Shown here: piece by piece, positions 19,986-46,531 of the stretch
How the letters are laid out: every line of letters begins with the position of its first letter
How positions within the stretch are numbered: the first letter of the stretch is position 1
From: an uncultured bacterium
Lineage (GTDB): Bacteria > Actinomycetota > Acidimicrobiia > Spongiisociales > UBA5794
Length of the DNA stretch: 64,000 nt
Assembly (NCBI GenBank): GCA_963801165.1
Contig: CAWDDT010000013.1
Location: 128,001 to 192,000 of the forward strand
Direction: 5' to 3'
Program-made: the position numbers and the translations under genes
The notes under the pieces: model-generated
The model's database searches: none
The model's input: the letters and a program-made list of their open reading frames with translations, nothing else
Told to the model about the DNA's origin: nothing

Positions 19986-20076
19986 ATGGAGCGGATCTCT
20001 CCGCCCGCAATTCCCCCGTCGATCCGGCTTGCCGGATCACCGGAACTGCCAATGTACCGGCAAAGCCGCTACACGG

Positions 20077-20149: not shown

Positions 20150-20200
20150 TCACCGAGGACGACGCAGGATAGGCATGTTGCCGGCACCGGCGTCCACACG

Positions 20201-20271
20201 AGCGGATGACGGGAGTCGAACCCGCGTAACCAGCTTGGAAGGCTGGGGCTCTACCACTGAGCTACATCCGC
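20201..20271 (-). tRNA. tRNA-Gly(TCC)
   Basis: GCGGATGTAGCTCAGTGGTAGAGCCCCAGCCTTCCAAGCTGG...GGTTCGACTCCCGTCATCCGCT. Confidence 0.95.
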
Positions 20272-29950: not shown

Positions 29951-32590
29951 GTGGAATTCCCCTATATGTTTGTGGGCATGGAATGGCCGCTCGTAGGGCG
30001 CGAATCCGCCCTGAAACATGCGCTCGAGCTGGTTTCATCCGGGACCGGGGTCGCCATCCTCGGTCCGGCCGGGGTCGGGAAGAGCCGCCTCCTGGCCGAG
30101 CTACTGAAGGAAGCCGAGAACACGGGTATGTCCGTGGTCCGCGCCGTGGCGTCCGAATCGACCCGATCGATCCCGTTTGCACCGTTTATCGAGCTGCTCC
30201 CCACCGGTCCCACGCCCGATCGTCTGGCGATGCTTGCGGCAGCGCGGCATGCCTTGGAGAAGCTCGACGGTCGCCGGGGCCGACTGATCTCCATCGACGA
30301 TGCCCACCATCTCGACCCGGTGTCGCTCTCCTTCCTCACCCTGGTGGTCGGTTCGGGAATCGCAAACATCGTTCTGGCCAGCAGGACCGGACAGCCCATG
30401 GACGCCGGCCTCGTCGGCCTGTGGACGAATGGCGCGATCGAACGGATGGACCTCGGACCGCTCGACCGGGACGAATCTCAAAGTCTGATTGAGTCCGTCC
30501 TGGACGGTTCGACCACAGCGCACCTCGAATCGGAACTGTGGAGTCTCGCCCGGGGCAATCCGCTCGTTCTCCACGAGATCCTCGAAGGTGCCGTTGGTGT
30601 CAGTGTCGTTCGCACACCGCATGGCACCTGGGATCTCGGCGGATCGCCGGCAAAGTCGCCGCGCCTCTCCGATCTCGTCGCCTCCAGGCTGCGGGCGATC
30701 CCGGAAACTCTCCAGCCTGCAATGGACCTTGTCGCCGTCGGAGCCCCGCTGCCGTATGCCATCGCCCAACAGGCGTTGGGTGACACACTCGCCGAACTCG
30801 AGAGTCGCCGCCTGGTGATGATGATCGGATCCGGCGGAGAGCAGACGGTCGTCCCGGCTCATCCGCTCTATGGGGAGATCCTCAAGGAGTACATCGGCTC
30901 GTCACGGATCCAATCCGCTTGTCGCACTCTGATCGCCGCTGCGGAAGCGACCGGGTCGATCTCCGATCCGGTACGGGTCGCACTCTGGCAGCGGGAAGCC
31001 CGCCAGACCTTCTCCATCGATATTGCTCTCGCCGGTGCCCGGGCAGCGTTGATTCGGCACGATCCCGCATTGTGTCAAGAACTGCTGGCACCACTCGACC
31101 CGGCGGATGATCGTGTCGCGCTACTACTCGGGCGCGCTCTGAGCTATCAGCATCGTTTTGCAGAGGCTGAAGCTGCGCTCGACGACAGGTGGCCCAACGA
31201 TCTCCGGCTGCTCACCGAGATCGTCTCGATTCGGGCTCAGAACCTGGGGTTTGGGCTGGGCCGGGTGACCCAGGCACGCGACCTCTTCGCAAGGGCTGCC
31301 AAAGCGGTCGACAACCCCGACCTCCGTGCCCGGCTCAACAACGAGAGAGCGACGATCTCCGCCATTCACGGAGACTTTGCAGACACGATGTCGGCCACAC
31401 AAGCGGTTCTCTCCGATCCCAACACATCGGCGGCACCACGCGCCTCGGCACACGTTGCACTCTCGGTTGCGCATGCGATGACTGGCGATGGCATGGGTTT
31501 CCACGCGGTGCACGACGAGGCAATGCGCTACGCCGATCTCGCCCGCGAAGTGCTCCCATTCGCTCATGATCAGATCGAGATCATGCATACGGCGGCGTTG
31601 ATCAACGCCGGAAGATTCGAGGAAGCGGTTAGCCTCACCGGGTCAGCGGTCGAGAAGGCAGGGCGTGGCGGGGCTCTAGTTCCCACGTGGCTCTCCGCCA
31701 GGTGCATGGCGCTGGTCGTCATGGGACGCCTCCGCACCGCAAAGAGCACCGCCCAACGTGCGCACGACCTATTCTCGCAGGCAGACCCGTTCGGGCTCGA
31801 GCTCCAGGCAGCCGGAATCGCGGCGTTTGCGGCCGGCCAGATGGGTGACACCGGTCCCGGGACCCTCCTCGACAAGATCGAGGTCCTACCGGCTGCACCC
31901 CGTCTGTCCATCTGGATAGACCTCGGGCGGGCATGGACGGAGGCGGCTCGTGGGAGACCGGCCCAGGGAGCCCGGATCGCTGCCGAGAGCGGACGGCGTG
32001 CGGTTGAGTGCGAACACTACGCCTGGGCGATGCTTTGTCTGTACAACGCCTCCCGACTCGGCGCCCCGGAGCACGTGGTGCAAGACGCAGGACAGATCGA
32101 TGTCTCGCGCGACGTTGACCTGCTCGCCACCATGCGAGCCCACATCGAGGCGTTCGCCACTGGCGATGCCGGAGGCGTTGCGGATGCTGCGAAGCGCTTC
32201 GCAGCGATGGGCGCGCACCTCCCCTCCGCCGAATGTTTCGCCCAGGCAGCATCCATTCTCGAAGGACGCGGCGCGTCGGCGGCAGCAGCCCGCTGTGTCG
32301 TGCTCTCACGTGTTGCCGAGCTGCGCTGCGAAGACCCGCATACCCCGGCGCTGGCGGACCGTCCCCCGCTGGTGACGGGCCGCGAGGTCCAGATTGCATT
32401 CGATGCTGCAACGGGTTTGAGCAGCCGGGAGATCGCTGCCAGGCGATACATTTCCGTGCGCACGGTCGACAATCATCTCCGGTCGGTGTACCGGAAGCTC
32501 GATGTCGCCGGGCGCGACGAGTTGGCTTCCCTGTTGCCTGGTATCCCGGACACCGCAGATCGCGTGCTCGCTCCTAGAGTCGACAGCTAG
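29951..32590 (+). CDS. Large ATP-binding LuxR-family transcriptional regulator
   Basis: LVGRE, GPAGVGKS, IDDAHHLD, GNPL, C-terminal HTH TGRE...GLSSREIA..YISVRTVDNHLRSVYRKL. Confidence 0.92.
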   Translation: MEFPYMFVGMEWPLVGRESALKHALELVSSGTGVAILGPAGVGKSRLLAELLKEAENTGMSVVRAVASESTRSIPFAPFIELLPTGPTPDRLAMLAAARHALEKLDGRRGRLISIDDAHHLDPVSLSFLTLVVGSGIANIVLASRTGQPMDAGLVGLWTNGAIERMDLGPLDRDESQSLIESVLDGSTTAHLESELWSLARGNPLVLHEILEGAVGVSVVRTPHGTWDLGGSPAKSPRLSDLVASRLRAIPETLQPAMDLVAVGAPLPYAIAQQALGDTLAELESRRLVMMIGSGGEQTVVPAHPLYGEILKEYIGSSRIQSACRTLIAAAEATGSISDPVRVALWQREARQTFSIDIALAGARAALIRHDPALCQELLAPLDPADDRVALLLGRALSYQHRFAEAEAALDDRWPNDLRLLTEIVSIRAQNLGFGLGRVTQARDLFARAAKAVDNPDLRARLNNERATISAIHGDFADTMSATQAVLSDPNTSAAPRASAHVALSVAHAMTGDGMGFHAVHDEAMRYADLAREVLPFAHDQIEIMHTAALINAGRFEEAVSLTGSAVEKAGRGGALVPTWLSARCMALVVMGRLRTAKSTAQRAHDLFSQADPFGLELQAAGIAAFAAGQMGDTGPGTLLDKIEVLPAAPRLSIWIDLGRAWTEAARGRPAQGARIAAESGRRAVECEHYAWAMLCLYNASRLGAPEHVVQDAGQIDVSRDVDLLATMRAHIEAFATGDAGGVADAAKRFAAMGAHLPSAECFAQAASILEGRGASAAAARCVVLSRVAELRCEDPHTPALADRPPLVTGREVQIAFDAATGLSSREIAARRYISVRTVDNHLRSVYRKLDVAGRDELASLLPGIPDTADRVLAPRVDS

Positions 32591-32815: not shown

Positions 32816-32889
32816 CGCATCTCGTTCGGTCGAGGACACGTGGCGAAGATCGCCTTCCATGGCAGGCACTTCTCGACGTCTCCACCTCG

Positions 32890-32963
32890 TCGGGCTGGCC
32901 AGATTTGAACTGGCGACCCCCTGCTCCCAAAGCAGGTGCGCTACCAAACTGCGCTACAGCCCG
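32890..32963 (-). tRNA. tRNA-Pro(TGG)
   Basis: CGGGCTGTAGCGCAGTTTGGTAGCGCACCTGCTTTGGGAGCAGG...GTTCAAATCTGGCCAGCCCGA. Confidence 0.95.
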
Positions 32964-33025
32964 TGGTAGCGCCATTGTTGCAGGTCTCCGTAGGTCTGTC
33001 GTACCGGCTTGATACGTTGTGCAGC

Positions 33026-33730
33026 ATGAGACCTCGAATACCCAACCGCTTGCAGCAGCGGGCATCCGGATGGAACCACCTGTCCAATCGACAGCGTTCC
33101 GATCTAGGCAAAGAACTACGCCGCCTCGGCTTGATGCAAAGCGAAATCCGAGAGATCATTCCGGTGGCGAAATCCACCCTGTCCTACTGGTGCCGCGACG
33201 TTCAATTGACTCAGAAACAGGTCGACAAGATCAGGCAACGCCGTTATTCGACTGCGGGCGGGCGTCGCGACACTCAGGCCAAGAGGCGAGAAGAGATCCG
33301 AGTCCTTCGAACCGAGGCCCAACAGCAAGCTACTGAGTGGTCCCGAGATCCGCTGTTTGCGGCTGGAGTCGCTCTCTACTGGGCGGAGGGATCCAAGACC
33401 CGCAATCACTTTTCGATCGCTAACACCGATCCGGCATTGCTACGCGTGTTCATTGGGTGGGTTCGCCAGTATCTCGATACCTCTGCAGATTTCCGGCTTT
33501 GCCTCCACCTCCACGAGGGCAACTGCGAAGAGGCCGCCAAGACGTATTGGAGAGCGGAGCTGGGCCTCCCAACAGCACGGTTCACCAAGACATACGTCAA
33601 ACCGCGCGGCACAGGACACAGGAAGAATCGCATACCGGCGGGTGTGTGTCGAGTTCTGGTATGCCGGGGAGGAGACCACTGGCAACGAACAATGCAATGG
33701 ATTGACAACATGAGTGAGTGCATGGTCTGA
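33026..33730 (+). CDS. tRNA-associated HTH + LAGLIDADG-like hypothetical protein
   Basis: HTH (LRRLG..QSEI...VAKSTLSYW), then GVALYWAEGSK...ANTDP..LRVF...LHLH...YW...LGLP...FTK; lies between tRNA-Pro and tRNA-Lys. Confidence 0.7.
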   Translation: MRPRIPNRLQQRASGWNHLSNRQRSDLGKELRRLGLMQSEIREIIPVAKSTLSYWCRDVQLTQKQVDKIRQRRYSTAGGRRDTQAKRREEIRVLRTEAQQQATEWSRDPLFAAGVALYWAEGSKTRNHFSIANTDPALLRVFIGWVRQYLDTSADFRLCLHLHEGNCEEAAKTYWRAELGLPTARFTKTYVKPRGTGHRKNRIPAGVCRVLVCRGGDHWQRTMQWIDNMSECMV

Positions 33731-33750
33731 AGGCTTGCTACAATCGCTCC

Positions 33751-33824
33751 GGGTCGCTAGCTCAATCAGGCAGAGCACCGGACTCTTAATCCGTAGGTTC
33801 AGGGTTCGATTCCCTGGCGACCCA
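33751..33824 (+). tRNA. tRNA-Lys(CTT)
   Basis: GGGTCGCTAGCTCAATCAGGCAGAGCACCGGACTCTTAATCCGTAGG...GGTTCGATTCCCTGGCGACCCA; extended -10 TGcTACAAT just upstream. Confidence 0.95.
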
Positions 33825-33870
33825 CTGCCGCCAGCGCTTACCGAGATCGATTGCTGTGGCGGCGTGTCAT

Positions 33871-33954
33871 GCGGGCGTGGCGGAAATGGAAGACGCGCCA
33901 GGTTTAGGTCCTGGTGGGCGAAAGCCCGTGGGGGTTCGAGTCCCTTCGCCCGCA
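33871..33954 (+). tRNA. tRNA-Leu(TAG), integration target (attL)
   Basis: GCGGGCGTGGCGGAAATGGAAGACGCGCCAGGTTTAGGTCCTGGTGGGCGAAAGCCCGTGGGGGTTCGAGTCCCTTCGCCCGCA; long variable arm. Confidence 0.95.
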
Positions 33955-34029
33955 CTTGAGCCAGATACCCGCCCATCAGGGGATTCTGCCTCGCGGGCGG
34001 GTCCGCCGCCGGTCGACGAAGACAATCGT

Positions 34030-34051
34030 TTCTACCCAATCTTCTACCCGA
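34030..34051 (+). repeat. Putative integrase arm-type sites (TTCTACCC x2), left end
   Basis: ttctacccaatcttctacccga; the same doublet occurs at 46341-46363 near the right end. Confidence 0.7.
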
Positions 34052-34825
34052 CCTCGTAGCGAGTCCAGAGGGGAACCGGGGCGATTAGCCATCGTTGCGC
34101 TCCGCACCGCGACCGCATGCCGATGCGCGGCAGCCAGTACCGTCTGATGTCGGCTCGTGCTTTCGCATGTGGGCCGTGGCGCTAACTGGCAGCAAGCTGG
34201 AAGGTCGCGTCGTGTGTGAACGTCGTCAGCGCCGTCTCGTCGCTCTGGCTGCCACTCTCAAACCTCCTTGAAGGTGTGAGCGGGGACCTGCTGGTCGTCA
34301 GACCGCTCGAGGTATTGCCGGGGGATGTCCGACGTGGCTTTGAGTGTCGCCGGGTGATTGGACCCCCGACGAGGCTCGCTTGTTCGACGGGTTATGAGCC
34401 CTTTCGGGTTCCCTTCATCATTTCGCGTTATCGCTCAATAGCCCGTGAGCCTGGGGTCCTGCGGGATCAGCGTGCTTCCTGATTCCGGCAGATGACCCCT
34501 CGTGACGCCCCGTCCGTTGGAAGGTTCGTTAGAAGAATGGCGTTCAGACCATGGGTCTTCGCCCTGCCGTGGCACCCACGCCCGGCGCCTCGGAACCACC
34601 TGATGGACGTCTTGTACGGTGGTGGCCGGTTTTGAAGACCGTTCGGGGCATTTCTCGGAAGTCGGCGACTCGCTGGGGATTCTGGCGTAAACCCTTATGA
34701 CACAATGGTTTACGACCACTCATCATCGTTGGTCATCTCGCGGTGGTTTGCATCGTTTCTCGTTCTCCCGCGCCCCCAGCGCGCCCCGAGATGCGGAAGA
34801 CTGCTCGCCGCGCTCACGCCCGGAT

Positions 34826-35150
34826 TCAGTCGCGGAGGGTTCTGAGAATGTCCTTCATGAGCAAGACGAGATGGAGGGCGTCGGTCGGTGACGGCTCGAA
34901 CTCGGGGATGAGATGGAGGTGGAAGTCGCGGGCCTGCGGTGTCTCGGCGTGAACAGCAAGCCCCGGCATCCGATCTCAGTGCCGAGCTGCGCCGTCCGGC
35001 TGATGGCGTCGGCGAGGAGACCGGCGCCGAGCCCGCGGCCCTCGTGCTCGCTCGACATCCCGAGAAGAACCAGCAGCGCCACCGACTGTGGGATAGCGGC
35101 CGGCACCATTGCTAACCCGGGTCGGAGCGTCCTCGGCGCACTCCCGGATA
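34826..35150 (-). pseudogene. Truncated, frameshifted GNAT acetyltransferase (AtaT/TacT toxin-like)
   Basis: APRTLRPGLA...PQSVALL...HEGRGLGAGLLADAISR...IGCRGLL, then after a 1-nt shift near 34955 VHAETPQARDFHLHLIPEFEPSPTDALHLVLLMKDI; N-terminus missing. Confidence 0.8.
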
Positions 35151-35253
35151 GCCACCGACCAACGAGCGCCAGCGTGAGTGCCGATGCAGAGCAGCATTTG
35201 AACTGCGCGATATCGCTCGGGAATTGATGATCTGCGATATCCATGCCATAGGC

Positions 35254-36573
35254 ATGACCGATGGGCGAGATTTTCGTGTGCCCATTGCGGAGATTCTCGG
35301 CCAGAATGGAGTCGTGGAATCCCGACCGCCCCTCGTAGGTGCACCCGCGCCGGAGCAGCAAGCAACCCGTTCCCTCGTCTTCTTGGCCGTGGTGGGCATT
35401 GCTGCCGGACTCTTTGGGTATCTTCTTGGAGTGACTGCCAACAGCGGTCAGGAGCCGGACCCGCCGAACGGGTTTCTTGCTCCTGTGGTATCTGGCGCCA
35501 CGACCGATACAAAGCAGGAGAATGACCGGACAGCGTCATCGTCGACAAGAGTGCCGGCGCTGGGTGCGACTAATGGTGCCACCTCTATGCCGCCGGTGCC
35601 AGGCCTTGTATCCGGTCCTGCCCTGCCGCAGGATCTACGTAGCTCGAGGTTCCGTCTCTTTCGGGGGGTGTGGCCGGAGCTCACGCTCGAGGAATGGACA
35701 ACCGAAGGTATCACGGCATCCGTACAGCTGCCGTGGCTTGCGAGTGGGCTGTCTGCCGACCAATCCGACGAACTGTTCGCATTCACCGCGCCGTCAGCCA
35801 CCGGGCAGACTCTCTATGTAGGCAGAAACAACATGTATGTAGCGGTATCAGCCGAACTTGCGGGAGGATGGTCATGGCACGGTTCTGAACCTGGGAAAGC
35901 AGCCTGGATCGAGGCGAGTGATGACGGGCGAGTAATGGTGTTCGGCCGACTTCAAGCAGAGATCTTGGGTGATCGTGGAGAGTATCTCGATGTAGCGGTA
36001 AATGCGCGGCACATCGGCGGAGCGCAACCAGATGAGTCGATCGTGGGACTTACGAGGTTTGGGATCGTGCTCCGCTCGTTCGACGAATCGGGACGGGCCA
36101 AGCTCGTCGCCCTTGACGGTGAAGTAGTGGCAGAAGCTGAGGGTATATTGCCGCTCGCCATCTCCGCCGACGGCTATGGATTGGCGGTTGTTCGATCGGA
36201 GGACCAGATTCAGTACGTCATCACCGACGAGGAGTTGAACCCTGTGACCAATCTCGGCCGCTATGACACGACAGCCGATTGGGTCGAATGGTCGCCGAGT
36301 GGCGAATACGTCGCATTCACACACACCGCTTTCCAAGATCGGGCATCGGACAGCGAGGTCCACCTTGAGATTTGGACCAGAAACGGACAGCCCGTGTTGG
36401 ACGTCCCGATACGTGCCGCAGTGTGGGATGGCGCTTGGACCGCTGATGAGTCGCGAGTAGTCATGGTGGCGAGCGATGCCGGTCCATGGCTTATCGCCAA
36501 CCCATCGACCGGCCAAATCCAAGCCCAGACCGTTGCGGCGGTGGCGGTGGCCGAGATAGACGCCAGCGGGTGA
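35254..36573 (+). CDS. Membrane-anchored extracytoplasmic protein, probable beta-propeller
   Basis: One TM helix (LVFLAVVGIAAGLFGYLLGV), Pro/Thr/Ser linker, TolB-like blades (ISADG, WSPSGEYVAF, WTADESRV); start uncertain (35224-35254). Confidence 0.7.
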   Translation: MTDGRDFRVPIAEILGQNGVVESRPPLVGAPAPEQQATRSLVFLAVVGIAAGLFGYLLGVTANSGQEPDPPNGFLAPVVSGATTDTKQENDRTASSSTRVPALGATNGATSMPPVPGLVSGPALPQDLRSSRFRLFRGVWPELTLEEWTTEGITASVQLPWLASGLSADQSDELFAFTAPSATGQTLYVGRNNMYVAVSAELAGGWSWHGSEPGKAAWIEASDDGRVMVFGRLQAEILGDRGEYLDVAVNARHIGGAQPDESIVGLTRFGIVLRSFDESGRAKLVALDGEVVAEAEGILPLAISADGYGLAVVRSEDQIQYVITDEELNPVTNLGRYDTTADWVEWSPSGEYVAFTHTAFQDRASDSEVHLEIWTRNGQPVLDVPIRAAVWDGAWTADESRVVMVASDAGPWLIANPSTGQIQAQTVAAVAVAEIDASG

Positions 36574-36778
36574 CCGAGGACACACTGGATTAGGTGTAGC
36601 GACCGCCAGGGATGCGTTTCTTGGGGCGAACGATCTTGATTGTCCGTTCCTATTCGTATCACCGCAAGATCCACGGTGTAGGCGAACTGATCCGCCGATC
36701 GACAAGGGTGATGCCGAGCATGCTGGGAAGGCAGTTCTATCGCCCGTATGACTTCCAATCACCGGGATCCCTATGGGG

Positions 36779-37405
36779 CTAGTCCAGGAGCCCTTGCTGT
36801 GCTGCCGCCATGAGCGCTTCGGTTTTGTTGGACGCGTCTAGCTTCCGGTACGTCGTAGCCAAAAGACGCTGCATGTTCCGTTCGCTATAGCCGATTGTGT
36901 CGGCCAACCTGCCAATCGTCACCCCGGAGGCGAGGATACGAAGCCAGTCAATCTCCTGGTCCGTCACTTGCATCGCGCCTTGACCCCTCGTGTCGGTTGG
37001 CGTCCAATCGCGAAAGACAACATGAGGCGCAATGGAGAGTCCCGCTCCGACGGCCTCTACGGCAACTACTAGCCAGTCGACAGACATCGCCACTGGAAGA
37101 ACGACCCACGCGCCGTATCGAAAGAGGGGTTCCGATAGGGCGGGCGAGGCAACCAGCGCGATGGTTGGGATCTGGGGAGTGTTCTCGCGAATTCGCAAGA
37201 ACAAGTCACAATCCTGTCGAGAGGCGCAGCCTGCTACCAGCAACGATGCGGACTCGCCCGCCACTGCCCACGCAACCGGATGGCTAACTTGCTGCACGTT
37301 CATACCGGCGGCTACGAGCACTGACTCGGCGCCAGCGGCTGTGAGTGGTGCAAGGCTTTTGGTTGCGATCCCGATCCGCATGTGTGCCCCCCTGTCGAAA
37401 CCCAC
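36779..37405 (-). CDS. LuxR/NarL-type regulator with a degenerate receiver-like domain
   Basis: C-terminal HTH TDQEIDWLRILASGVTIGRLADTIGYSERNMQRLL...YRKL..NKTEAL..A.QQGLL; divergent from the cargo operon. Confidence 0.85.
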   Translation of the reverse strand: MGFDRGAHMRIGIATKSLAPLTAAGAESVLVAAGMNVQQVSHPVAWAVAGESASLLVAGCASRQDCDLFLRIRENTPQIPTIALVASPALSEPLFRYGAWVVLPVAMSVDWLVVAVEAVGAGLSIAPHVVFRDWTPTDTRGQGAMQVTDQEIDWLRILASGVTIGRLADTIGYSERNMQRLLATTYRKLDASNKTEALMAAAQQGLLD

Positions 37406-37780
37406 ACGCCCCGCATTATCAGCCTACCCGATCACCAGACTTCTCGGCTCGGTATGCGCGAGAGCTTCCGGCGTCGCTTTCCCAATGACGGCGGACGCGA
37501 GAGGTGGCTTCTGCATATCGACCCATTGACGAGGGAGTCAGGCGCGAGGCCAGAGGCGTGGACCGCATTAGGCGGGGGGTTTGTGCCTGCATTGCGACGA
37601 CAAATGGCTGGCCGCTTCGGGCCAACCTTTGTCGTTGACGCGAGCTGGTGTCGTATCGAGAGGGATAGGGCAGGAGGTTTGTGAACTGATGCTGAGACCG
37701 GGCATAGACGACAGCGCTGGTAGGTTCGAGGCCGGGATCTTGCAGAGTCTCCTCGTGGTCGCCGCGGGTACGGGGGGAGT

Positions 37781-38368
37781 GTGATGTCTGCGAGGCATCT
37801 TGATCGCCGGGAAGTCCTCAGAATGATGGGGGTCTTTGTAGGAGGGGAAGTCGTCCTTACGAATCTTGGGGCCAGTCCTGCACGTGCCAGATCGGAGAAT
37901 CGGTACCGTAGCGACGCCATCGTTGTGGGATCGGTCATGGCTGTCGAAGCGGATTCGAATCAGATTGCGATCCGATCTGCTGTCCGATCTGAGGGATTCG
38001 TGGATATCGTCTGCTCGTCCAGGACGGTGTTCCTGCGTGACAGGCCTGCTGCAATCTCTGACTTCCTGACCGGAGACAAGATTGCGGTATTCGGAAGCCG
38101 CCAAGGCCAGTCACTCTTTGCAGCGACGGCTGTCCAGCCCGCCTATGAGGCGATGTTTGTTGATGTTGAATGGCCGCTCCCGGAGCGTGATATCACTATC
38201 CGAACTGAGCGGGGCGATCTCCTCATTCCCAACGGTGTCCTCAAGGTTGGTGAGACTGACCCAGCTCTCGTAGGTGATTTGACCCGAGTTCAGGCAACAG
38301 TTCGTCACGAGCCAGCGACGAACCGCTACGTGGCCGCCCTGATAGGCAACGGAGGCCACCACTCATGA
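37781..38368 (+). CDS. Tat-exported hypothetical protein, OB-fold/DUF5666-like
   Basis: DRREVL twin-arginine motif, ARA cleavage site; G.V.AV....I.I....V.....T.F......ISDF..GDKIAVFG...AATAV pattern; GGGGGAG RBS. Confidence 0.65.
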   Translation: MMSARHLDRREVLRMMGVFVGGEVVLTNLGASPARARSENRYRSDAIVVGSVMAVEADSNQIAIRSAVRSEGFVDIVCSSRTVFLRDRPAAISDFLTGDKIAVFGSRQGQSLFAATAVQPAYEAMFVDVEWPLPERDITIRTERGDLLIPNGVLKVGETDPALVGDLTRVQATVRHEPATNRYVAALIGNGGHHS

Positions 38369-38934
38369 GCGTTCCGTCGGTTCTTGGCTGGATTGTCATT
38401 GTGACTTTGTCATGGGCCGGTGCAGCGAAGCTCCTTAACCCAGCCGCGACACTTGGTGGTATCCGGTCTACGCTTCGGGCTGTACCGATACCTCGCTGGT
38501 CGGTCTGGTTCTTGGTCGCAGCGGAACTCGGTATCAGCGCCGCCTTGGCGTTCGGATTGCTTAGCGGCAGTTTCGTCCAACCGCCAGCGCTAGGAGCTGG
38601 GATCCTTCTCGCATTGTTCACGGTGATAAACGCCGTGGACATGATCCAGGGCGGTGAAAGTTCGTGTGCGTGCTTCGGCGCCACCGACATCTATCCGATA
38701 AGATTCAAGTCCTTCGCCTTGGCCAGATCTGCGTTCCTCAGCTCGCTTGCATTTGTCCTAGCCGTCGCCCCACCGGGCCAAACCAGTGCCGTCGAAGAGA
38801 CGAAGGCCGCCATCCTCGCAGTGAGCATCGTCGCGATGGCAGCCGTGATTCTAAGGGCTGTCCAATCGGTACGCCTGTGGCCCGCGCACACAGTCAAAGT
38901 CAAAGAGGTAGTCGAAGAGGTTCTGGCGGTCTAG
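38365..38934 (+). CDS. MauE/DoxX-family membrane protein
   Basis: AGAAKLLNP, LVAAELG, LLALFT, CACFG (CxCFG signature), ARS; ATGA overlap with the upstream gene. Confidence 0.85.
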   Translation: MSVPSVLGWIVIVTLSWAGAAKLLNPAATLGGIRSTLRAVPIPRWSVWFLVAAELGISAALAFGLLSGSFVQPPALGAGILLALFTVINAVDMIQGGESSCACFGATDIYPIRFKSFALARSAFLSSLAFVLAVAPPGQTSAVEETKAAILAVSIVAMAAVILRAVQSVRLWPAHTVKVKEVVEEVLAV

Positions 38935-38982
38935 GAGCGATGAACATGCACCCAACAGGTACGAAACGACCGGGAGAGATCT

Positions 38983-39603
38983 ATGCCTGAAATGGATACC
39001 GCCTTGGTTGCAGCTCTCTTGGCATGGCAGGTCGTTGTAGCCGTTCTGATAGCAGTCCTTTTCCGGCAGGTCGCGCTGCTGTCAATCGCTATGAGTCAAC
39101 AAGACCCACCAGCGCGCAACTCAAATCTGGCAGTTGGGGTCCCAATCCCCCAAGAACTTGACTCAGACATGGTTGACCCCGCCGAAACAACGTACGTGTT
39201 CTGGCTATCCGTTGGCTGCGACGCGTGCGTCAGAGTTGCAGAAGAACTGGGCACCGCGATTTCGACGGGTGCATGGACCGAATCAACAGTTGCGTTGATC
39301 ACGGGGCCAGCCACCGCGGCTACGTCGCTATCGGACACAGCAGCCCTTCAGAATCGCACCATCGTCGACCCAGATGCCAGCTCAATAATCGAGACTCTCG
39401 GCCTGACAACGTCACCGTTCGTGATCAAGACCGCGAATGGCGTCGTCAGGGGGTGGAGCACCGTTACAAGCATTCCGGACTTGGAGAAGCTACGAACCGA
39501 TCCCGCCAGCGGCGATACTGACAAACGGGAGGAAGAGCAGATCGCATCGCCGAAATCTGAAGAGGCAGGGTCTACTCCATCAACATCGGGGTCGCACCGA
39601 TGA
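38983..39603 (+). CDS. MauD-like membrane-anchored thioredoxin-fold protein
   Basis: N-terminal TM ending AVLFRQVALL, LAVG.PIP, FWLSVGCDAC (CxxC), TSPF (cis-Pro position), GVVRG. Confidence 0.82.
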   Translation: MPEMDTALVAALLAWQVVVAVLIAVLFRQVALLSIAMSQQDPPARNSNLAVGVPIPQELDSDMVDPAETTYVFWLSVGCDACVRVAEELGTAISTGAWTESTVALITGPATAATSLSDTAALQNRTIVDPDASSIIETLGLTTSPFVIKTANGVVRGWSTVTSIPDLEKLRTDPASGDTDKREEEQIASPKSEEAGSTPSTSGSHR

Positions 39604-39983
39604 TCAGCTCGCAGCGAACGGACGAGGACCTGCGGATATCGAACTCCGAGTCTGTTCCCAGCGGACCCACGTTCTTGACGCGGAGCGCATTTCTTGCTCG
39701 TGCCGCTGCCGTAGCGTTTGGCACTGCGGCCTTCCTGTTCGGCCTGCCAATGCCCTCCGCTCTGGCGTCGCATAACAGGTGTTGTCATGAATCCACTCCC
39801 CTCTGTTCTTGCTGCAACGGAGACACCTGCTGCGCTTCCGGCTGCACCATCCGGTGCGGCGATTGCCCTGGTGGTGGGTGCTCGTGGACGTGTTGCTACG
39901 GGACTGCGCTTTGGAACTGTAAGGACTGGAACGATCCAGCAGTAGGGAACTGCGTATGCATCGAAGGGTTGAGTCAATGCTAG
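39600..39983 (+). CDS. Secreted Cys-rich peptide (17 Cys in a ~71-aa mature region), in the MauA position
   Basis: ATGA-coupled to the mauD-like gene; Tat-like LTRSAFLA, hydrophobic stretch, ALA|S site; mature region CCHESTPLCSCCNGDTCCASGCTIRCGDCPGGGCSWTCCYGTALWNCKDWNDPAVGNCVCIEGLSQC. Confidence 0.85.
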   Translation: MISSQRTDEDLRISNSESVPSGPTFLTRSAFLARAAAVAFGTAAFLFGLPMPSALASHNRCCHESTPLCSCCNGDTCCASGCTIRCGDCPGGGCSWTCCYGTALWNCKDWNDPAVGNCVCIEGLSQC

Positions 39984-40038
39984 GTGGCCACTGGAAACGA
40001 TCCATCGGCAGCTCGACTTATGACGACATTGGAGCACC

Positions 40039-40740
40039 ATGAACACTGGACTGGTCGCCGTCCTATCGGCCGCAGCAATCACTGCCGCTCTCGTACAGCA
40101 AACACTTCCGTGAGGCGTCAACCTGGCACAAGACACCAGGTTTCCCGAAGGTCTTCGGGGCAGAGCCAAACCAAGACTCATTGCCAGCAGCTGGCACCTC
40201 ATCTTGCTGGGCGCTACCAGCGCACTGGCAGGCGCCGCGATAGGGCTTGGTCTCGGGGCTCTCAGCTCTGTGCTCAATCTGCCTCAACAGGGTTCCGTCG
40301 TTGCAGCTGCGACCCTCGGGATGGTGCTTGGCGGTCGAGAAGTGGCTGGTGCCAGTCTGAATCTGTGGCAGATCGACCGCGAAACACCGCGAGTTTGGGC
40401 AGAACGATCTCCGTTCTCCTGGGCAGTGAGAACGGGAACCCTCATCGGAACAGGGTTCGTCACCCGTATCGGCTACACCGTGTTCTACGTGGCTCCGATC
40501 GGTATCCTTCTTGCAGCAGACTCAATCAGCGGGGCAATCATCCTGGGAGCATACGGTGCCACAAGAGGCTTCTCGTCCCTGGTGCTCAACCGCCGCCTGG
40601 CCCTGGATGCCGGATTCGATACGCTAATGATGATTCTTTTCGGGTTGAGGACTAGAGCTCGGGTCCTCTCTGGAGTGGCGACGACACTCGTTTCCCTCAC
40701 AGGGCTGGCGTGGGCGCTCGTCTCAGCCGCCCAAGCCTAG
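40039..40740 (+). CDS. MauF/DsbD-like membrane protein with in-frame TGA (candidate selenoprotein, 233 aa)
   Basis: GGAG RBS then ATG 40039, in frame with the 40204-40740 ORF: MNTGLVAVLSAAAITAALVQQTLP-TGA-GVNL... Downstream motifs WQIDRETPRVW, GTLIGTGFVTRI and YGATRG match MauF-like proteins. Confidence 0.75.
40114..40160 (+). promoter_or_regulatory. Candidate bacterial SECIS element
   Basis: Directly after TGA 40111-40113: hairpin AACCTGG-cacaagaca-CCAGGTT (40120-40142), then CCCGA-AGGTCT-TCGGG (40144-40159). Confidence 0.5.
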
Positions 40741-41118
40741 AAACCAGGGGATCCCTTTGGTGTTCGTTGCGCACCCAAGCCCGACGTTGACGGCGAACCG
40801 GTCTTGTTTGGGCCTGTGAGCGTCGTCGTAGACGCGACCGGATCCTCGGTAGCAGGTTCGATTGTTCACAATCTGGGCGACAACGTGGGGACCGTGTACC
40901 ACAATAATCCGGAGCGAGCGAGGTCTCGGAGCGCTCCATTCCGTTTGGGAGGAGGGCCGAGCATCGCCAAACATAGTTGTGCGCTCAAGGAGTCGGATCG
41001 GTCAACGGTGCCCTAGATCACCTACCGCCCCGCACGTTATCGCACCAGCGTCCGGCAACCGGCAGTCGGCGCTGGCAAGACAGTGTCTGGATCGGGCTAG
41101 GCGTGGAGTGCCCGTATG

Positions 41119-43866
41119 TCAGCGGCCGATGTCGGGGATGTGCCGGGTCCAGGCGTGCTCGGTGATGTGGCGTTGCCTGGCGGTTTCGATGCTCTGGTTA
41201 ATCTGCTGCCAAATGCGGTTGTCGTCGGGGCTGAGATCCGGCTTGTCGTCGTGGTCGGTTGGGTGCGTTGCTTCTTGCTGATCGCCTCCGAGCTGGCTGT
41301 GTCCGAGCGAGGGGTTCAACACCCTGTCGGCTTCGAGGCGCGTTCGTTGGGTGATGGCGGGCTCGTCGATCCAATCCCGGATGATGGCTTGGGTGAGGAT
41401 ATCGGCTGCCGTTTCGCCTTCGTTGGTGACGACGTAGGCGTGGTTGGAGCTTCGGCCGCGGGTCAGCGGCGTGTAGAGACCGCGGCCGTCGACGGGGCCG
41501 TCAACGAGGAGGAGACCGGTGTCGACGGTGCGGCCTTGGGTGGCATGGCTGGTCTGCGCATAGCCAAGCTCGAGATCCTCAGCGGCGTAGTCGGCGGGAA
41601 GACGCACCCTGCCCGAGCGTCCGGTGACGGTGACGGCGCCGTCGGTGTGGATAGCTTCGATCGTCCAGTGGTCCCGGTTCTTGACCATGGCGCCGCGGTC
41701 GGTGCGCAGGGTGCGCTGGTTACGGCGGGTAACCACCTCGTCGCCGACGAGCAGCCGCTCACGGGCAACGTCGAGGGCCGGCCCGTCCGGGTCGAGCTCA
41801 CCGGCGTCGATGCGTCTCTGTTGGGCATGCTGGTTGAGCCGGTTGACGGTGTGGTTGGTGTTGGCCATCAACGCCACCGACTCGCCCCGCCGCCGCGCCT
41901 GATACCAGGCGTCGACGACGGCGGCCTCCATCTCGTTGGGGGTGCCGTCGTGGAGGCGACCGTGACGCTGATACTCGCCGAGCACGCCGATGTCGCCTTG
42001 GCGGAGACGCCGGGTGGCGTCGGCTTCCCAGTCGTGGGTGAAGCGGTGGATGTGGTCAAGTTCGATGGCACCACAGGTGTCGATGAGGTGGGCGAACATG
42101 CCGCCCCGACCAACAGCGGAGAACTGGCGGGGATCACCCACCATCACCACCCGCCATCCTTTCACGTCGGCGAGATCGACGAATGCCGCGAGTTTCGGGG
42201 TGGAGACGGTGCCGGCTTCATCAACGATCACCGTCGAACCCCGCGGCAAATCGTATCCCGGTTGTGGTGGCCGGTCGGGCCGGGAGTGTTCGTAGAGGAG
42301 CTTGTCCAGCGTGTCGGCCATCATGGTGGTTTCTGCGGCGAGCACCTCGGCGGCCGCTGCGGTGGCTGCCACCCCGAACACCGTCTGGCCGCGGTGCTGT
42401 AGGTAGGCGACGGCGGGGGTGAGGGCGACGGTCTTGCCGGATCCGGCGGGTCCGACGATCAGCTCCAACGGTACGCTACCGGCTACTGCCCGACACGCTT
42501 CGGACTGGCCCACACTCAAACCGGCCGTATCGAGACCCCGACGTGGGGTGTTGATGATGTCGGCGAAACGGCGCAGGCGTTGAGCCCATTCCACGATCCG
42601 TTCCTCCTCCTCAAGAATCGCTCCGGTGGTGAGGGCCCGGTCGACGGCGGCTTCGGCGATGGGGCGCCCATCACGGCGCAACACGGCACCAGACGGCACG
42701 GGTGGGGACAGGTCGACACAGCGGTCCGCCGCAACACGGTTGGCGAGGTCCTGCAGGAAGCTGCACAGACGATCCGGTTCGACGGTGACATTGGTGGGGA
42801 CCTGGGCGGCGAGCTCACGGACCAGCTCGGCGGGACGCCACGTCGACTGCCGCTCCCCCAAAGCCTCCAACGCCCCCTCCACCATCCCTGTCATTGTCGC
42901 CTGGTCGATGCCCGCCGCCCGACGGACCCGACCCACCGCGCCCACGGCGATGTCGTGTGGCTCGAAACCGCGAGCGGCCGCCCGCATCCGCCACCCGGCA
43001 TGCAACTCGCCCGCAGCGTGATCGTGAGTCTTAGCGGGGCGACTATCGAGCACGGCTTCGCGTTCCAAGCGCCACCGCTCCCGTCCAGTCGGTTCCCGCC
43101 CGAGGTCGCTGCGGAACCGAACCAGTTTTCCGCCAACCCGCTGCTCGACGTCATGGCTGCGTTGGGAGAACTCGGCCAGTATCTCCGCATCGACACCGAC
43201 CATCTCGGCAATCCCATTGTCAGGTTGGTGCCATCGGACACCGAGGCGGCGGGTCAGCTCGGCCCGTAGCCCGGCGTGATACAACCCCGACAGGGTCCGC
43301 TGATCCATCTTGATGGTGCGGGCATCGAGCGCCAACCACCGTCCGTCCGGAGCCTTGACTCTGTTGGCGATCACCGCATGGGTATGCAGCTGCGGGTCGA
43401 GGCGACGGCTGGTGTGCTGACGAAACACCCCCACCACGATCCCTTCGGCGTCAACACACATCACATGACCCCGCCGCCGCATCCTCGTGTGCGCTTGGGA
43501 CTCGACCCAACCCAACACCGCGTCGACCGCCTGGCCATGCGCCTCGGTCACCTGTGCCCTGAGGTGTTCGTCGCCCATGGCGAACAGCACCGACACCGAC
43601 TTCGGCGCCGAAAAGGTCGCATCGAACCCCCGCACCGAGTCATCCCCGAAGCGGCGACCCAACCGCTCCCCCGTCGTCGGATGCAATCCGGCCATCACCG
43701 CCAGAAACGCCTCATCCTCGACCACACCATCCAGACCCAACTCGGCGGCGCCGTATCCGAACCAGCGACCCGGCGGCTCACCACTGTCGAGGTAGTACGA
43801 CGGGAGCTGCTCGGTGTAATAGCGACCCGCCTCGGCACCTTTCAACGTCGTCACCCGCACCGTCAC
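41119..43866 (-). CDS. mobF: MobF (TrwC-type) relaxase-helicase
   Basis: N-terminal YY..YY, FDATFSAPKSVS, HTSRRLDPQLHTHAVI (HUH), EFSQRS; helicase motifs GPAGSGKT, VDEAG, VGDPRQ, GYAQTSHATQGRT. Confidence 0.95.
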   Translation of the reverse strand: MTVRVTTLKGAEAGRYYTEQLPSYYLDSGEPPGRWFGYGAAELGLDGVVEDEAFLAVMAGLHPTTGERLGRRFGDDSVRGFDATFSAPKSVSVLFAMGDEHLRAQVTEAHGQAVDAVLGWVESQAHTRMRRRGHVMCVDAEGIVVGVFRQHTSRRLDPQLHTHAVIANRVKAPDGRWLALDARTIKMDQRTLSGLYHAGLRAELTRRLGVRWHQPDNGIAEMVGVDAEILAEFSQRSHDVEQRVGGKLVRFRSDLGREPTGRERWRLEREAVLDSRPAKTHDHAAGELHAGWRMRAAARGFEPHDIAVGAVGRVRRAAGIDQATMTGMVEGALEALGERQSTWRPAELVRELAAQVPTNVTVEPDRLCSFLQDLANRVAADRCVDLSPPVPSGAVLRRDGRPIAEAAVDRALTTGAILEEEERIVEWAQRLRRFADIINTPRRGLDTAGLSVGQSEACRAVAGSVPLELIVGPAGSGKTVALTPAVAYLQHRGQTVFGVAATAAAAEVLAAETTMMADTLDKLLYEHSRPDRPPQPGYDLPRGSTVIVDEAGTVSTPKLAAFVDLADVKGWRVVMVGDPRQFSAVGRGGMFAHLIDTCGAIELDHIHRFTHDWEADATRRLRQGDIGVLGEYQRHGRLHDGTPNEMEAAVVDAWYQARRRGESVALMANTNHTVNRLNQHAQQRRIDAGELDPDGPALDVARERLLVGDEVVTRRNQRTLRTDRGAMVKNRDHWTIEAIHTDGAVTVTGRSGRVRLPADYAAEDLELGYAQTSHATQGRTVDTGLLLVDGPVDGRGLYTPLTRGRSSNHAYVVTNEGETAADILTQAIIRDWIDEPAITQRTRLEADRVLNPSLGHSQLGGDQQEATHPTDHDDKPDLSPDDNRIWQQINQSIETARQRHITEHAWTRHIPDIGR

Positions 43867-43962
43867 CCTGCCACCCCCACCCTGTCACGGCAGGTGTGCA
43901 CTCGTCTGTTGCTCTTGGGCCGGTGCAGGAGGTGCGTGGACGTGGGCATCGGTACTCCGCTC

Positions 43963-44367
43963 TCAGTCGGCGGTGGCTACTCGGTCGAAGAGATCGAGTT
44001 GGTCGGTAGTAGCGCGTTGGCGAGTTCGCGACCGTCGGCTGGTGGTTGTGACGGTTGCAGGATCGGGGTTGGCGGGAAGTTCTGGACCCATCGCCGCTCG
44101 GGCCTGCGGCGTCCCCGTGGACTCCGGGTCGTCGTTGCTGCTGGAGACGTCCACGCTCGACAGGTCGGCACCGATCATCTCCTCGAGGGCTGAGCGTGGC
44201 ACCCGCAACACGTGACCGAGATCGACTACCGGCAGCCCGGAGTGACCGCCGGTCTCCCGCCACTCCCGCGCCATGGCATACGCCTTGGTGCGCCCGATCC
44301 GCAACAGCTCTCCGGCCTCTTCGACCGTCAGCAGCAACGGAATCGGTACCCCATTCACAATATACAA
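43963..44367 (-). CDS. Excisionase-like HTH protein (start uncertain)
   Basis: LLTVEEAGELLRIGRTKAYAMA...LPVVDLGHVLRVPRSAL; divergent from the XRE gene. Confidence 0.85.
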   Translation of the reverse strand: MYIVNGVPIPLLLTVEEAGELLRIGRTKAYAMAREWRETGGHSGLPVVDLGHVLRVPRSALEEMIGADLSSVDVSSSNDDPESTGTPQARAAMGPELPANPDPATVTTTSRRSRTRQRATTDQLDLFDRVATAD

Positions 44368-44453
44368 CCTTTGCAGGCACTACTCATAGACAGTATGATA
44401 GCAGCGTGCTCACACATTTCACACACAAGCGTCATGTTGTGTACGATACGGAG

Positions 44454-45197
44454 ATGCCCGCACATCCAGATCCACCACCCAGCGGCGAGGTCGACCTCAA
44501 CCAGATCGTCGCCTACAACCTGCGCGAAGCCCGCCAACTACGCGGATGGACCCAAGAAGGGCTCGCCGACCGGCTCGAGCCCTACCTCGGCCAACGCCTC
44601 ACCCAGGCCGGCATCTCCTCGATGGAAAGGGCCTGGGACGGAGACCGCCGACGAGAGTTCGACGCACACGAACTGCTGATCTTCGCCATGGTGTTCGACC
44701 TCCCCATGCTCTACTTCCTACTCCCCCCACCCGGCGACCGCCGCCGCCTTCAAGCCACCAGCGCCCAAGTCAACCATCTGTACGCCTGGCTCCTCGGCCG
44801 GCACGGACAGGTTGAACCGGTGTACGAACGGCTCCGCCAGCTCGGCATCACCGACCCCACCGCAGCCGAAGAGACCGTCGAGAAGATCACCGGGATCCCC
44901 GGCGCAGCAAAGCAGTGGAGCTACCGGGAACGGCGCAAGGAGCTGCTCCTCGCCATCCTCAACGAGCACGCCGACGACTTCGACAAGAACATCGAAGAAC
45001 TGGGACGCATCGTCGACCACCTCCGCCAGGTCGGCATCCGCGGCTTCGTCGCCGAACACACCCACGACGAAGACTTCACCTACCGAGAAGGCCACCCACC
45101 ACGGACGGTACGTCAGGACCCTCTCGTTAGCCGTGAGAACGAGGCAGCACGAGACGACTCAAGCGATGAGAGGGCGACACCGGGAGGTAGGCCGTGA
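44454..45197 (+). CDS. XRE-family transcriptional regulator
   Basis: Start at MPAHPD; VAYNLREARQLRGWTQEGLADRL...QAGISSMER; overlaps the integrase start (GTGA). Confidence 0.88.
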   Translation: MPAHPDPPPSGEVDLNQIVAYNLREARQLRGWTQEGLADRLEPYLGQRLTQAGISSMERAWDGDRRREFDAHELLIFAMVFDLPMLYFLLPPPGDRRRLQATSAQVNHLYAWLLGRHGQVEPVYERLRQLGITDPTAAEETVEKITGIPGAAKQWSYRERRKELLLAILNEHADDFDKNIEELGRIVDHLRQVGIRGFVAEHTHDEDFTYREGHPPRTVRQDPLVSRENEAARDDSSDERATPGGRP

Positions 45198-46393
45198 GGC
45201 GTCGAGGGCACATCGCCCGGAAGGGCCGGAAGTTCTACGCAGTCGTCGACCTTGGGCGCGACGAGCTGAGCCGCAGGCGCCGTCGGCGATGGTCACGCGG
45301 GTTCGAGACGGAGAGCGAGGCCGACGCCGAGCTCGTCCGGCTCCTCCACTCCCTCGACCAAGGCGACTCGATCGAGCGAACCAAGCTCACCGTCGAGCGG
45401 TACCTCTTGGAGCGGTGGCTCCCCATTGCCGAAGGAAACCTGGCGGTTACCACGCAGAAGGAGTACCGGGTGACCGTGACGGCGTACGTCGTCCCTCACA
45501 TCGGGCATCTTCGGCTCAATCGAGTCGATGCCACAACGATCGACCGACTGTACGTGAAACTGCGCAGGGAGGGTGGCCGCGATGGTCGCCCGCTGTCCGC
45601 CAAGACGGTCCGGAACATCCATGGTGTGCTGTCGGCGGCGTTCGGGTTCGCCGTCAAGAAAGGCCTGCTCACCCGCAACCCGGTGGCGCTCGCCGAAACA
45701 CCGGACGCGGGGCGACCCGACACGGCTCCACCGTGGACCGCCCAAGAGCTTCGGTCCTTCATCAACCACGTCGACGGTGACCGCCTGGAAGCGCTGTGGT
45801 GGATGATCCCGTTCACCGGGATGCGCCGCTCCGAGGCGCTTGGCCTCGCCTGGGACGACGTGGATCTCGACCGCGGGACGATCGCCGTGACCCATACGGT
45901 CGTGGACGCCGACGGTGGACCAGTAAGGCGCCGCGACACCAAGACGCGGCAAAGCCGACGCCCGATCTCGCTCGACGTCGACACGCTGGGAAAGGTCCGC
46001 GAGCATCGCCGCCGTCAGCTCGAGGAGCGGATGTTCGTAGGCGCCGGCTACAACGACATCGGTCTCGTGTTCTGCCGCCCCGACGGGTCGACGCTGCGTC
46101 CCGATTGGGTATCACGACGCTTCGCAAGGATCAGAGACGAGGCCGGTCTACGGCGAATCACCCTTCGCGATCTCCGTCACGTATGGGCGACACTCGCCCT
46201 GGAGTCAGGCATCCACCCCAAAGTCGTCCAGGAACGGCTCGGCCACTCCTCGATCGCCATGACAATGGACCAGTACTCACACGTCATCGAAGGTCTCGAC
46301 CGCCAAGCAGCGGCCACGGTGGCCGACCTGGTGCTCCGACCTTCTACCCAGACTTCTACCCAACCCCCCGCCATCGGACGCGATCAGGCATAA
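45194..46393 (+). CDS. int: Tyrosine recombinase/integrase
   Basis: Arm-binding N-terminus, TGMRRSEALGL, RDLRH (R replaces the usual H of HxLRH), QERLGHS, catalytic Y in DQYSH; next to attR. Confidence 0.95.
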   Translation: MRRRGHIARKGRKFYAVVDLGRDELSRRRRRRWSRGFETESEADAELVRLLHSLDQGDSIERTKLTVERYLLERWLPIAEGNLAVTTQKEYRVTVTAYVVPHIGHLRLNRVDATTIDRLYVKLRREGGRDGRPLSAKTVRNIHGVLSAAFGFAVKKGLLTRNPVALAETPDAGRPDTAPPWTAQELRSFINHVDGDRLEALWWMIPFTGMRRSEALGLAWDDVDLDRGTIAVTHTVVDADGGPVRRRDTKTRQSRRPISLDVDTLGKVREHRRRQLEERMFVGAGYNDIGLVFCRPDGSTLRPDWVSRRFARIRDEAGLRRITLRDLRHVWATLALESGIHPKVVQERLGHSSIAMTMDQYSHVIEGLDRQAAATVADLVLRPSTQTSTQPPAIGRDQA

Positions 46394-46476
46394 CGCGTTG
46401 ACATACGCTTCCGAGCAAACCCTTGCCGTGCAATGCTTCTCGACAGTGGACAACACCCGGCGGGATGAAGCGTCCT

Positions 46477-46531
46477 AGGTTTAGGTCCTGGTGAGCAATG
46501 CTCGTGGGGGTTCGAGTCCCTTCGCCCGCAC
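46477..46531 (+). repeat. attR: displaced 3' half of tRNA-Leu
   Basis: AGGTTTAGGTCCTGGTGAGCAATGCTCGTGGGGGTTCGAGTCCCTTCGCCCGCAC matches 33900-33955 except in the variable arm. Confidence 0.93.

Follow-up and report, generated by a model that had tools for sequence, protein, structure and literature searches.

Does the UGA at codon 25 of a frame spanning positions 40039-40740 end translation, or is it read as selenocysteine (Sec)? The frame lies in a 64,000-nucleotide stretch of DNA from an uncultured bacterium of the Acidimicrobiia (contig CAWDDT010000013.1, positions 128,001 to 192,000, hereafter the window), and on comparative evidence we conclude that it is probably one gene for a 233-residue membrane selenoprotein, whose UGA would specify Sec and whose CcdA/DsbD-like product may have a redox role within a MauE operon. 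The list of open reading frames (ORFs) made with translation table 11 calls this gene at 40204..40740 (+), as a protein of 178 residues that starts with TTG. A first-pass annotation had instead proposed an upstream ATG, and sequence and ORF list agree that this ATG (40039-40041), preceded by GGAG, is in frame with the called ORF. Reading through with TGA translated as U yields 233 residues before the stop TAG (40738-40740); codon 25 is the one position recoded (U25, flanked as L-P-U-G), and the frame is otherwise free of stops. The frame had also been described as devoid of cysteine, and it is, the only C in the translation being the letter written at codon 25 to stand for U. Contigs from four metagenome runs (two studies) cover the TGA at 40111-40113 with zero differing letters, so that none of the TGC, TGT or TGG readings raised earlier occurs in them; one of the two studies is possibly the window's own source and hence not independent.

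The UGA codon and its homologues

Six-frame searches of 61 related genomes detected the gene in three, namely the window's genome, G004 (30% identity) and G059 (33%). Each copy contains exactly one internal TGA, which in translation occupies the same column of the motif Q-(Q/S)-(T/S)-(L/I)-P-U-G, and between the window and G059 four of the five codons preceding the UGA carry synonymous changes that leave the residues unchanged. A profile of these three sequences (A1) matched 40 of 401 genomes sampled across the phylum. The matches from genome searches that cover the column (n = 39) comprise 33 TGA, four TGC and two TGT codons; four partial matches that fall short of it (G092:C20:33869-34090 and those in G109, G295 and G149) were left out. 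The partial match in G092, a second one in that genome, spans profile positions 101-175 and has one internal TAG, and the same genome also holds a full UGA form. A pattern scan of named genome records returned eight loci, of which two duplicate G004 and G059 and six are new, all with TGA, in metagenome-assembled genomes (MAGs) labelled Solirubrobacterales, Actinomycetota, Rubrobacter, Thermoleophilaceae, Gaiellaceae and Thermomicrobiales, the last belonging to a different phylum.

Altogether, the 45 homologous loci have an invariant P-[U/C]-G motif whose middle column is TGA in 39 of them and a Cys codon in 6, and never Trp or any other residue. The first-pass annotation had asked for this comparison, with conservation on both sides of the column, and both flanks are indeed conserved: the first transmembrane (TM) segment and P-U-G upstream, and G-x-(S/N) with the remaining protein downstream. 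Six of the TGA loci are from unpublished genomes (G061, G106, G281, G077, G293 and G177); the published genomes contribute 27 TGA and 6 Cys among 33 loci. An alignment of these 33 published sequences (A3) has P24, U/C25, G26, G133, G139 and R176 as invariant positions. TGA occupies the column in all 12 loci of the subfamily to which the window's gene belongs, and the Cys forms are confined to sister clades.

A word-indexed protein search with the read-through protein recovered only one relative, truncated at 132 aa, and the family surfaced through the six-frame genome searches. A profile search of 1.84 billion representative proteins then returned 5,489 representatives at E <= 0.001 and 560 at E <= 1e-30. 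Among the best 150 of these, 87 have the P-C-G motif, 59 start right past the UGA column as shortened gene calls, and four are fragments or other sequences; where their sources name them, the name is "hypothetical protein", with a lone exception named MnhB antiporter subunit. About 40% of the best representative clusters (59/150) are therefore called without TM1 and the catalytic residue, a systematic annotation error.

Because the same TGA recurs at the same column in 38 further loci, its presence in the window is not due to chance. A pseudogene made by a nonsense mutation, for which an acquired island of atypical codon usage would be a plausible setting, or a TGA introduced by assembly error might produce a similar frame. 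We find either scarcely credible, given that the 38 loci retain both flanks at 23-33% identity, a divergence that excludes copies of one recent element, and that the four runs from two studies agree. A second explanation takes the UGA as an ordinary stop, with a 24-codon upstream ORF and an N-terminally shorter protein made separately, from TTG 40204 here and from an in-frame ATG four codons past the UGA in the main clade. Gene callers agree with it, as the 59 of the best 150 representatives that begin right past the UGA column attest, and the main-clade ATG does exist. On the other hand, the Cys forms join the upstream and downstream parts in one continuous protein with the same motif, and the shorter protein would be without TM1 and the sole invariant motif. 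Moreover, the first standard start after the UGA in the window lies 31 codons downstream, inside the next hydrophobic segment, UGA forms were found only in genomes with Sec markers, and a hairpin of the kind that recruits the Sec machinery follows the codon in 24 of 27 Sec forms versus none of six Cys forms (see below). An ordinary stop is thus a very improbable reading of this codon.

Selenocysteine machinery and hairpins

Whether the host could decode UGA as Sec was the next point raised in the first-pass annotation, and selA, selB, selD and tRNA-Sec were all found in the window's genome: selA (425.1 bits) adjoins selB (320.4 bits), selD (397.5 bits) contains an internal TGA of its own, and the tRNA-Sec (72.7 bits) is called by ARAGORN as tRNA-SeC with anticodon TCA. 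The Sec-containing selD lies at G000:C9:522433-523359, and the same genome encodes a formate dehydrogenase (FDH)-like molybdopterin enzyme with the motif C-N-R-T-U-H-A-P (G000:C4:41218-42369). A second, weaker match to the tRNA-Sec model (G000:C4:183095-183198, 51.2 bits) is not called as a tRNA by ARAGORN. Sec machinery or markers were present in all 32 searchable UGA-form genomes. The Sec trait is common across these mostly uncultivated lineages, since selA scored over the cut-off in 260 of the 401 evenly sampled genomes of the phylum, with 29 of 31 UGA-form genomes positive versus 231 of 370 others (Fisher p 1.4e-4, an overstated value as related genomes are not independent). After removal of unpublished genomes, selA was found in 23 of 25 UGA-form genomes. 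For three of the six genomes with a Cys form (G291, G161 and G188), no selA or selD match exceeded the cut-off.

Two hairpins follow the UGA at 40120-40142 and 40143-40160, as the first-pass annotation had it, and the loop that it gave as AGGUCU consists of GGUC and the closing A-U pair. We take GGUC to be the loop of the E. coli fdhF selenocysteine insertion sequence (SECIS). For bacterial SECIS elements (bSECIS), section 5 of PMC13188914 lists a loop of 3-9 nt with G in its first two positions, a stem of 4-16 bp, a spacing of 16-37 nt and a minimum free energy <= -7.5 kcal/mol. Under a strict test of these criteria, with contiguous stems only, 24 of 27 Sec forms pass and none of the six Cys forms does; the background, taken from the remaining 4,693 codon positions in these genes, has 844 passes (18%). 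Of the 24 passing Sec forms, 23 qualify through hairpin 2, at spacings of 30-36 nt, and G255b qualifies through a hairpin at 25 nt that overlaps hairpin 1 in its 3' arm. Hairpin 2 is also the element that qualifies in the window, which bears out its earlier description as SECIS-like, and its spacing is near the 33 nt of selD from the same genome, a control that passes the test (8 bp, loop GUU) and likewise has an earlier hairpin, from +10. The element accordingly shares with the bSECIS consensus its place as a coding-region stem-loop past the UGA, a 4-nt G-first loop and agreement with all four published criteria; it differs from the consensus and from fdhF in having an extra conserved hairpin between UGA and element, a spacing at the edge of the range and no Rfam match.

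Covariation was assessed in an alignment of the 27 published Sec forms from UGA-6 to UGA+60 (A2), in which RNAalifold independently predicted hairpin 1 and part of hairpin 2. Under the structure read off the alignment 89.2% of cells are paired, versus 41-55% once the pairing partner is shifted. In hairpin 1 the paired share is 93.8%, and four of its six pairs show compensatory (both-side) changes; hairpin 2 is 85.2% paired, a figure lowered by the window's clade, which is one column out of register. With at least 5 bp each, hairpin 1 is found in every one of the 27 Sec forms, beginning between +9 and +14, and hairpin 2 in all but one (26 of 27); means for the Cys forms (n = 6) are 4.3 and 4.5 bp, respectively. 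Sec forms (18 of 18) use ACC for the Thr in the stem of hairpin 1, and three of four Cys forms that encode the same peptide use ACG.

These data also bear on the possibility that near-cognate or suppressor decoding places Cys, Trp or Gly at the UGA. In favor of it, comparative data are silent on residue chemistry, and homologues do function with Cys at the column; yet the genome has complete Sec machinery, the hairpin is conserved with a bSECIS-type G-containing loop and spacing that match selD of the same genome, and the homologous genes of G059 and G004 terminate in TGA. Insertion of another residue is highly unlikely on these grounds. A general sense code for TGA was considered separately and is ruled out, because the G059 and G004 copies of the gene end in this codon. 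For the window's gene we favor decoding as Sec, which the first-pass annotation had proposed and which the comparative evidence supports. Decoding would then follow the standard bacterial mechanism, with SelB and Sec-tRNA(Sec) recruited by the hairpin at 40143-40160 and with hairpin 1 filling the gap between the UGA and the bSECIS element, as in selD of the same genome.

Several results tell against Sec insertion. The support that we infer it from is comparative, not chemical, and the locus appeared in no RNA run listed in our expression search. The Cys forms, from sister clades, are only ~23-25% identical and none is from the window's subfamily. As to the hairpins, the 18% background rate of the bSECIS test is high, three of the 27 Sec forms (G164, G121 and G423) fail it in its strict form, as does the FDH-like gene of the window's genome (loop GGUCU), and the spacing of hairpin 2 (36 nt) comes close to the longest that the criteria allow (16-37 nt). 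Folding energies downstream of the codon do not separate Sec from Cys forms (-19.8 vs -18.8 kcal/mol), and a permissive Rfam scan of 39950-40350 returned no SECIS family and two chance matches. Lastly, selA was not found in the UGA-form genomes G164, G290 and G004 (98%, 94% and 80% complete). G164 has a Sec-containing selD and a tRNA-Sec of 80.7 bits; G290 has selD and a partial selA match (model positions 409-453 only, in a 55-aa open frame); and G004, without any selA match, has a Sec-containing selD and a 75.2-bit tRNA-Sec.

The CcdA/DsbD relationship and the MauE operon

The earlier assignment of the protein to the CcdA/DsbD type stands in part. When A3 was compared with an alignment of 14 DsbD_TM (CcdA) proteins collected from published relatives (A4), hhalign reported a probability of 93.9% and E of 1.5e-7 over 203 columns, with the sP[U/C]G of the family sitting on S-P-C-V of CcdA TM1. 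The second catalytic Cys of CcdA, in TM4 (W-T-P-C-I-G-P, invariant in A4), aligns with a variable non-Cys position, and a second invariant Cys is absent from A3. At E <= 0.01, 5 of the 33 A3 members match DsbD_2 (best E 1.8e-6) and 4 of 33 match DsbD_TM; NCBIfam gave weak DsbD matches only for the same 33. Hydropathy indicates ~6 TM segments and a positively charged loop past the Sec region. The family thus shares with the CcdA/DsbD TM domain (PF02683 DsbD_TM; PF13386 DsbD_2) profile homology over the whole length, ~6 hydrophobic segments, a redox residue in the TM1 S-P-C motif and a gene adjoining that of an extracytoplasmic thioredoxin (Trx)-fold protein, and differs from it in the use of Sec for Cys in most members, the loss of the TM4 Cys and frequent fusion to MauE. 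Taken together, sequence comparison supports a diverged CcdA/DsbD homologue and not a canonical CcdA, the profile homology and the position of Sec upholding the type assignment and the missing second Cys setting its limit. Matches of the window proteins and the 33 members in the Pfam and NCBIfam scans include no model for MauF, a membrane protein needed for synthesis of methylamine dehydrogenase (MADH). A PDB sequence search with the A3 profile gave a chance match only (E 0.14).

The Sec gene is the last in a conserved operon that encodes MauE, a MauD-like protein, a Cys-rich exported protein and the Sec protein. MauE is also encoded upstream in three other loci (L062, L045 and L026), and in G160 the Sec protein itself has a C-terminal MauE domain. 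Such a domain is fused in 28 of the 91 representatives of at least 300 aa, and 25 of these 28 start right past the UGA column; by comparison, 52 of the 56 representatives of at least 430 aa are Cys forms with another, unassigned C-terminal extension. This extension of ~280 aa has no Pfam match (e.g. P0009, P0012 and L045:1480-2907), and P0138 carries PD40 beta-propeller repeats. Of the 39 loci, 33 have a Cys-rich ORF immediately upstream of the family gene (28 of the 33 published ones; the unpublished G106 is doubtful), and 25 of these ORFs have the tail motif R-I-N-G-D ... G-Y-C ... V-F-C in common.

In the main clade, the operon consists of genes for a TM-anchored Trx-fold protein, a Cys-rich protein with a twin-arginine translocation (TAT) signal and the Sec protein, in this order. 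Its Trx-fold protein is MauD-like (TIGR02661, E 5.2e-31 over the full length, below the equivalog cut-off), and its Cys-rich protein has a leader similar to the one on the MADH small subunit (TIGR02659, E 9.9e-6, positions 6-50; PDB 3c75_L, E 0.18, residues 8-43). For the mature Cys-rich domain there is no match to the MADH light chain or to Pfam, and the Cys-rich protein of the window matches nothing. The modules thus share with the mau cluster for MADH maturation the order MauE - MauD-like - exported Cys-rich small protein and a long, MADH-small-subunit-like TAT leader, and differ from it in the mature Cys-rich domain. The main-clade Cys-rich partner (A5; L031:2151-2684 (-), L063:928-1485 (+) and relatives) forms a conserved family of ~175-195 aa without Pfam match, in which a MauA-like TAT leader is followed by an invariant block, H-x-C-G-H-x-(Y/F)-T-T-x-S-C-P-H-P, and an 8-Cys tail, and it could be a new cofactor-bearing or metal-binding exported protein. 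Two Cys-form loci have unusual arrangements: in G161 a natural MauE-MauD fusion of 306 aa (L093:2036-2956; HCGCFG, then a TM anchor and GCRVC) immediately precedes the genes for the Cys-rich protein and the Cys-form CcdA-like protein, and in G291 two Cys-rich ORFs with the same tail motif (L038, 2723-3310 (-) and 2079-2867 (-)), possibly a tandem duplication, lie upstream of the Cys-form gene.

What the protein might do is suggested by these partners. A 2026 preprint (10.64898/2026.03.05.709764) reports that MauE, which uses a CXC site, can take the place of DsbB in E. coli, and it proposes that MauE works via Trx-fold partners such as MauD. Sec would take the place of the TM1 catalytic Cys in the invariant P-[U/C]-G, and the membrane selenol could form a selenenylsulfide in exchange with the thiol of a partner. 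MauE, often fused to Sec forms, would be the likeliest partner through its CXC, or else MauD through its CXXC, and redox equivalents might be relayed in this way to form or reshuffle disulfides of the Cys-rich exported protein. We put forward this function, selenol exchange with a MauE or MauD thiol in the service of Cys-rich protein disulfides, as a tentative proposal whose chances fall a little short of even. The same caution as for the codon applies to the protein: no Pfam or NCBIfam model matched the window protein, whose CcdA link is through the family profile; its Trx-like neighbor and main-clade MauD gave a non-significant pairwise BLASTP E of 27; and a Sec protein with one redox residue cannot work as CcdA does, which makes the mechanism a conjecture.

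The main functional rival is a ligand or transport role, in which Sec would be no redox relay and the CcdA-like protein would be a transporter whose Sec or Cys binds metal, sulfur or selenium cargo for the Cys-rich protein. Retention of one of the two catalytic Cys of CcdA suits a ligand better than a two-electron relay, and the conserved His/Cys clusters of the partner (H-x-C-G-H ... S-C-P-H-P) could bind metal. Membrane or DsbD-related Sec precedents appear in Table 1 of PMC13188914, where TsoB (NF045694, UxxxxU), the SO_0444 Cu/Zn efflux transporter (NF033936, UxC) and the mercuric transport protein (PF02411) are catalogued, the latter two as Sec-containing metal transporters; as far as these table rows go, their motifs differ from the P-U-G found here. 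None of the 33 members matched the TsoB, SO_0444 or PF02411 models at E 0.01, and the absence of matches to NF033936 counts against a ligand role, as do the thiol-redox nature of the operon partners (MauE CXC, MauD-like CXXC) and the predominance of Sec forms among the MauE-fused representatives (25/28). We therefore consider a ligand role unlikely and retain selenol exchange as the working proposal.

None of the 119 selenoprotein families and subfamilies in Table 1 of the 2026 catalogue (PMC13188914) is a CcdA-type P-U-G membrane protein. A description of a CcdA-like P-U-G selenoprotein was not found in the literature searched, though the supplementary tables of surveys cited in that catalogue may list an unnamed candidate, and NCBIfam has no model for the P-U-G family. 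These comparisons indicate that the family is most likely a new selenoprotein family, with the decoding mechanism and the fold superfamily already known. If so, it would be a widespread addition to the prokaryotic selenoproteome, found chiefly in soil lineages that are poorly cultivated (Acidimicrobiia, Thermoleophilaceae, Gaiellaceae, Rubrobacter, Solirubrobacterales and Thermomicrobiales MAGs), and one of unusual chemistry, with selenocysteine inside the membrane on a CcdA-type scaffold minus the second Cys. Operon and fusion tie this scaffold to MauE, which the 2026 preprint proposes as a major DsbB-like disulfide generator (10.64898/2026.03.05.709764), and the MauE pathway would gain a testable extra component and a candidate natural substrate. 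On a broader and more speculative view, which as a whole we rate as possible but doubtful, the window's gene would be the first example of a large selenoprotein family that has gone unrecognised (5,489 representative clusters), in which a one-residue selenol in a CcdA/DsbD fold is MauE's missing partner through an Se-S bond with the CXC, matures a new class of Cys-rich TAT-exported proteins and travels as part of a module on mobile elements between Sec-competent hosts.

The mobile element and its surroundings

Positions 33900-46531 of the window form a 12.6-kb integrative mobilisable element at tRNA-Leu(TAG) that carries the whole MauE/Sec operon (Table 1). The ratio of G and C at third codon positions (GC3) is 0.59-0.67 in operon genes vs 0.75-0.83 in flanking genes. 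A selenoprotein operon on a mobilisable island makes one ask how cargo that depends on Sec is passed on to Sec-competent hosts only. In a plasmid collection, tblastn with a MauE gave one unannotated Burkholderia match and no annotated mau cluster, and tblastn with the read-through protein gave no match.

Table 1. Features of the mobile element and of the predicted selenoprotein gene (window coordinates).
Feature	Coordinates	Strand	Remarks
attL	33900..33955	+	3' 56 nt of tRNA-Leu(TAG), gene 33871-33955
Protein without family, 449 aa	35224-36573	+	Element cargo
LuxR-type regulator	36779-37405	-	Element cargo
Protein, 195 aa	37781..38368	+	Twin-arginine-like N-terminus; no family match; 4-nt overlap with MauE start
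MauE	38365..38934	+	PF07291, E 9.8e-13; active-site motif C-A-C-F-G
TM-anchored protein	38983..39603	+	CDAC at residue 79; MauD-like by architecture and clade-mates
Cys-rich small protein, 127 aa	39600..39983	+	17 Cys in last 75 residues; conserved upstream partner
GGAG ribosome-binding site	40031..40034	+	4 nt 5' of ATG
Selenoprotein gene (predicted)	40039..40740	+	233 codons and stop TAG; ~6 TM segments; diverged CcdA/DsbD-like
In-frame UGA	40111..40113	+	Codon 25, read as selenocysteine (predicted); aligned with CcdA TM1 catalytic Cys
Hairpin 1	40120..40142	+	AACCUGG / 9-nt loop / CCAGGUU, 7 bp; family-conserved position; fails bSECIS loop and spacing criteria
Hairpin 2, predicted bSECIS	40143..40160	+	7-bp stem; loop GGUC 40150-40153; 36 nt past UGA; -8.2 kcal/mol
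TrwC-type relaxase/helicase	41119..43866	-	
HTH_17 protein (excisionase-like)	43966..44367	-	
Tyrosine integrase	45194..46390	+	
attR	46477..46531	+	Direct repeat of tRNA-Leu 3' end, 94-95% identical

Outside the element, the window has two tRNA clusters, at 19908-20271 (His, Arg, Gly) and at 32889-33955 (Pro, Lys, Leu). Between them lie housekeeping genes for trigger factor, ClpX and a class I tRNA synthetase, together with genes for a protein with SLH and PD40 domains (27905-29749) and a STAND/LuxR regulator (29951-32587).

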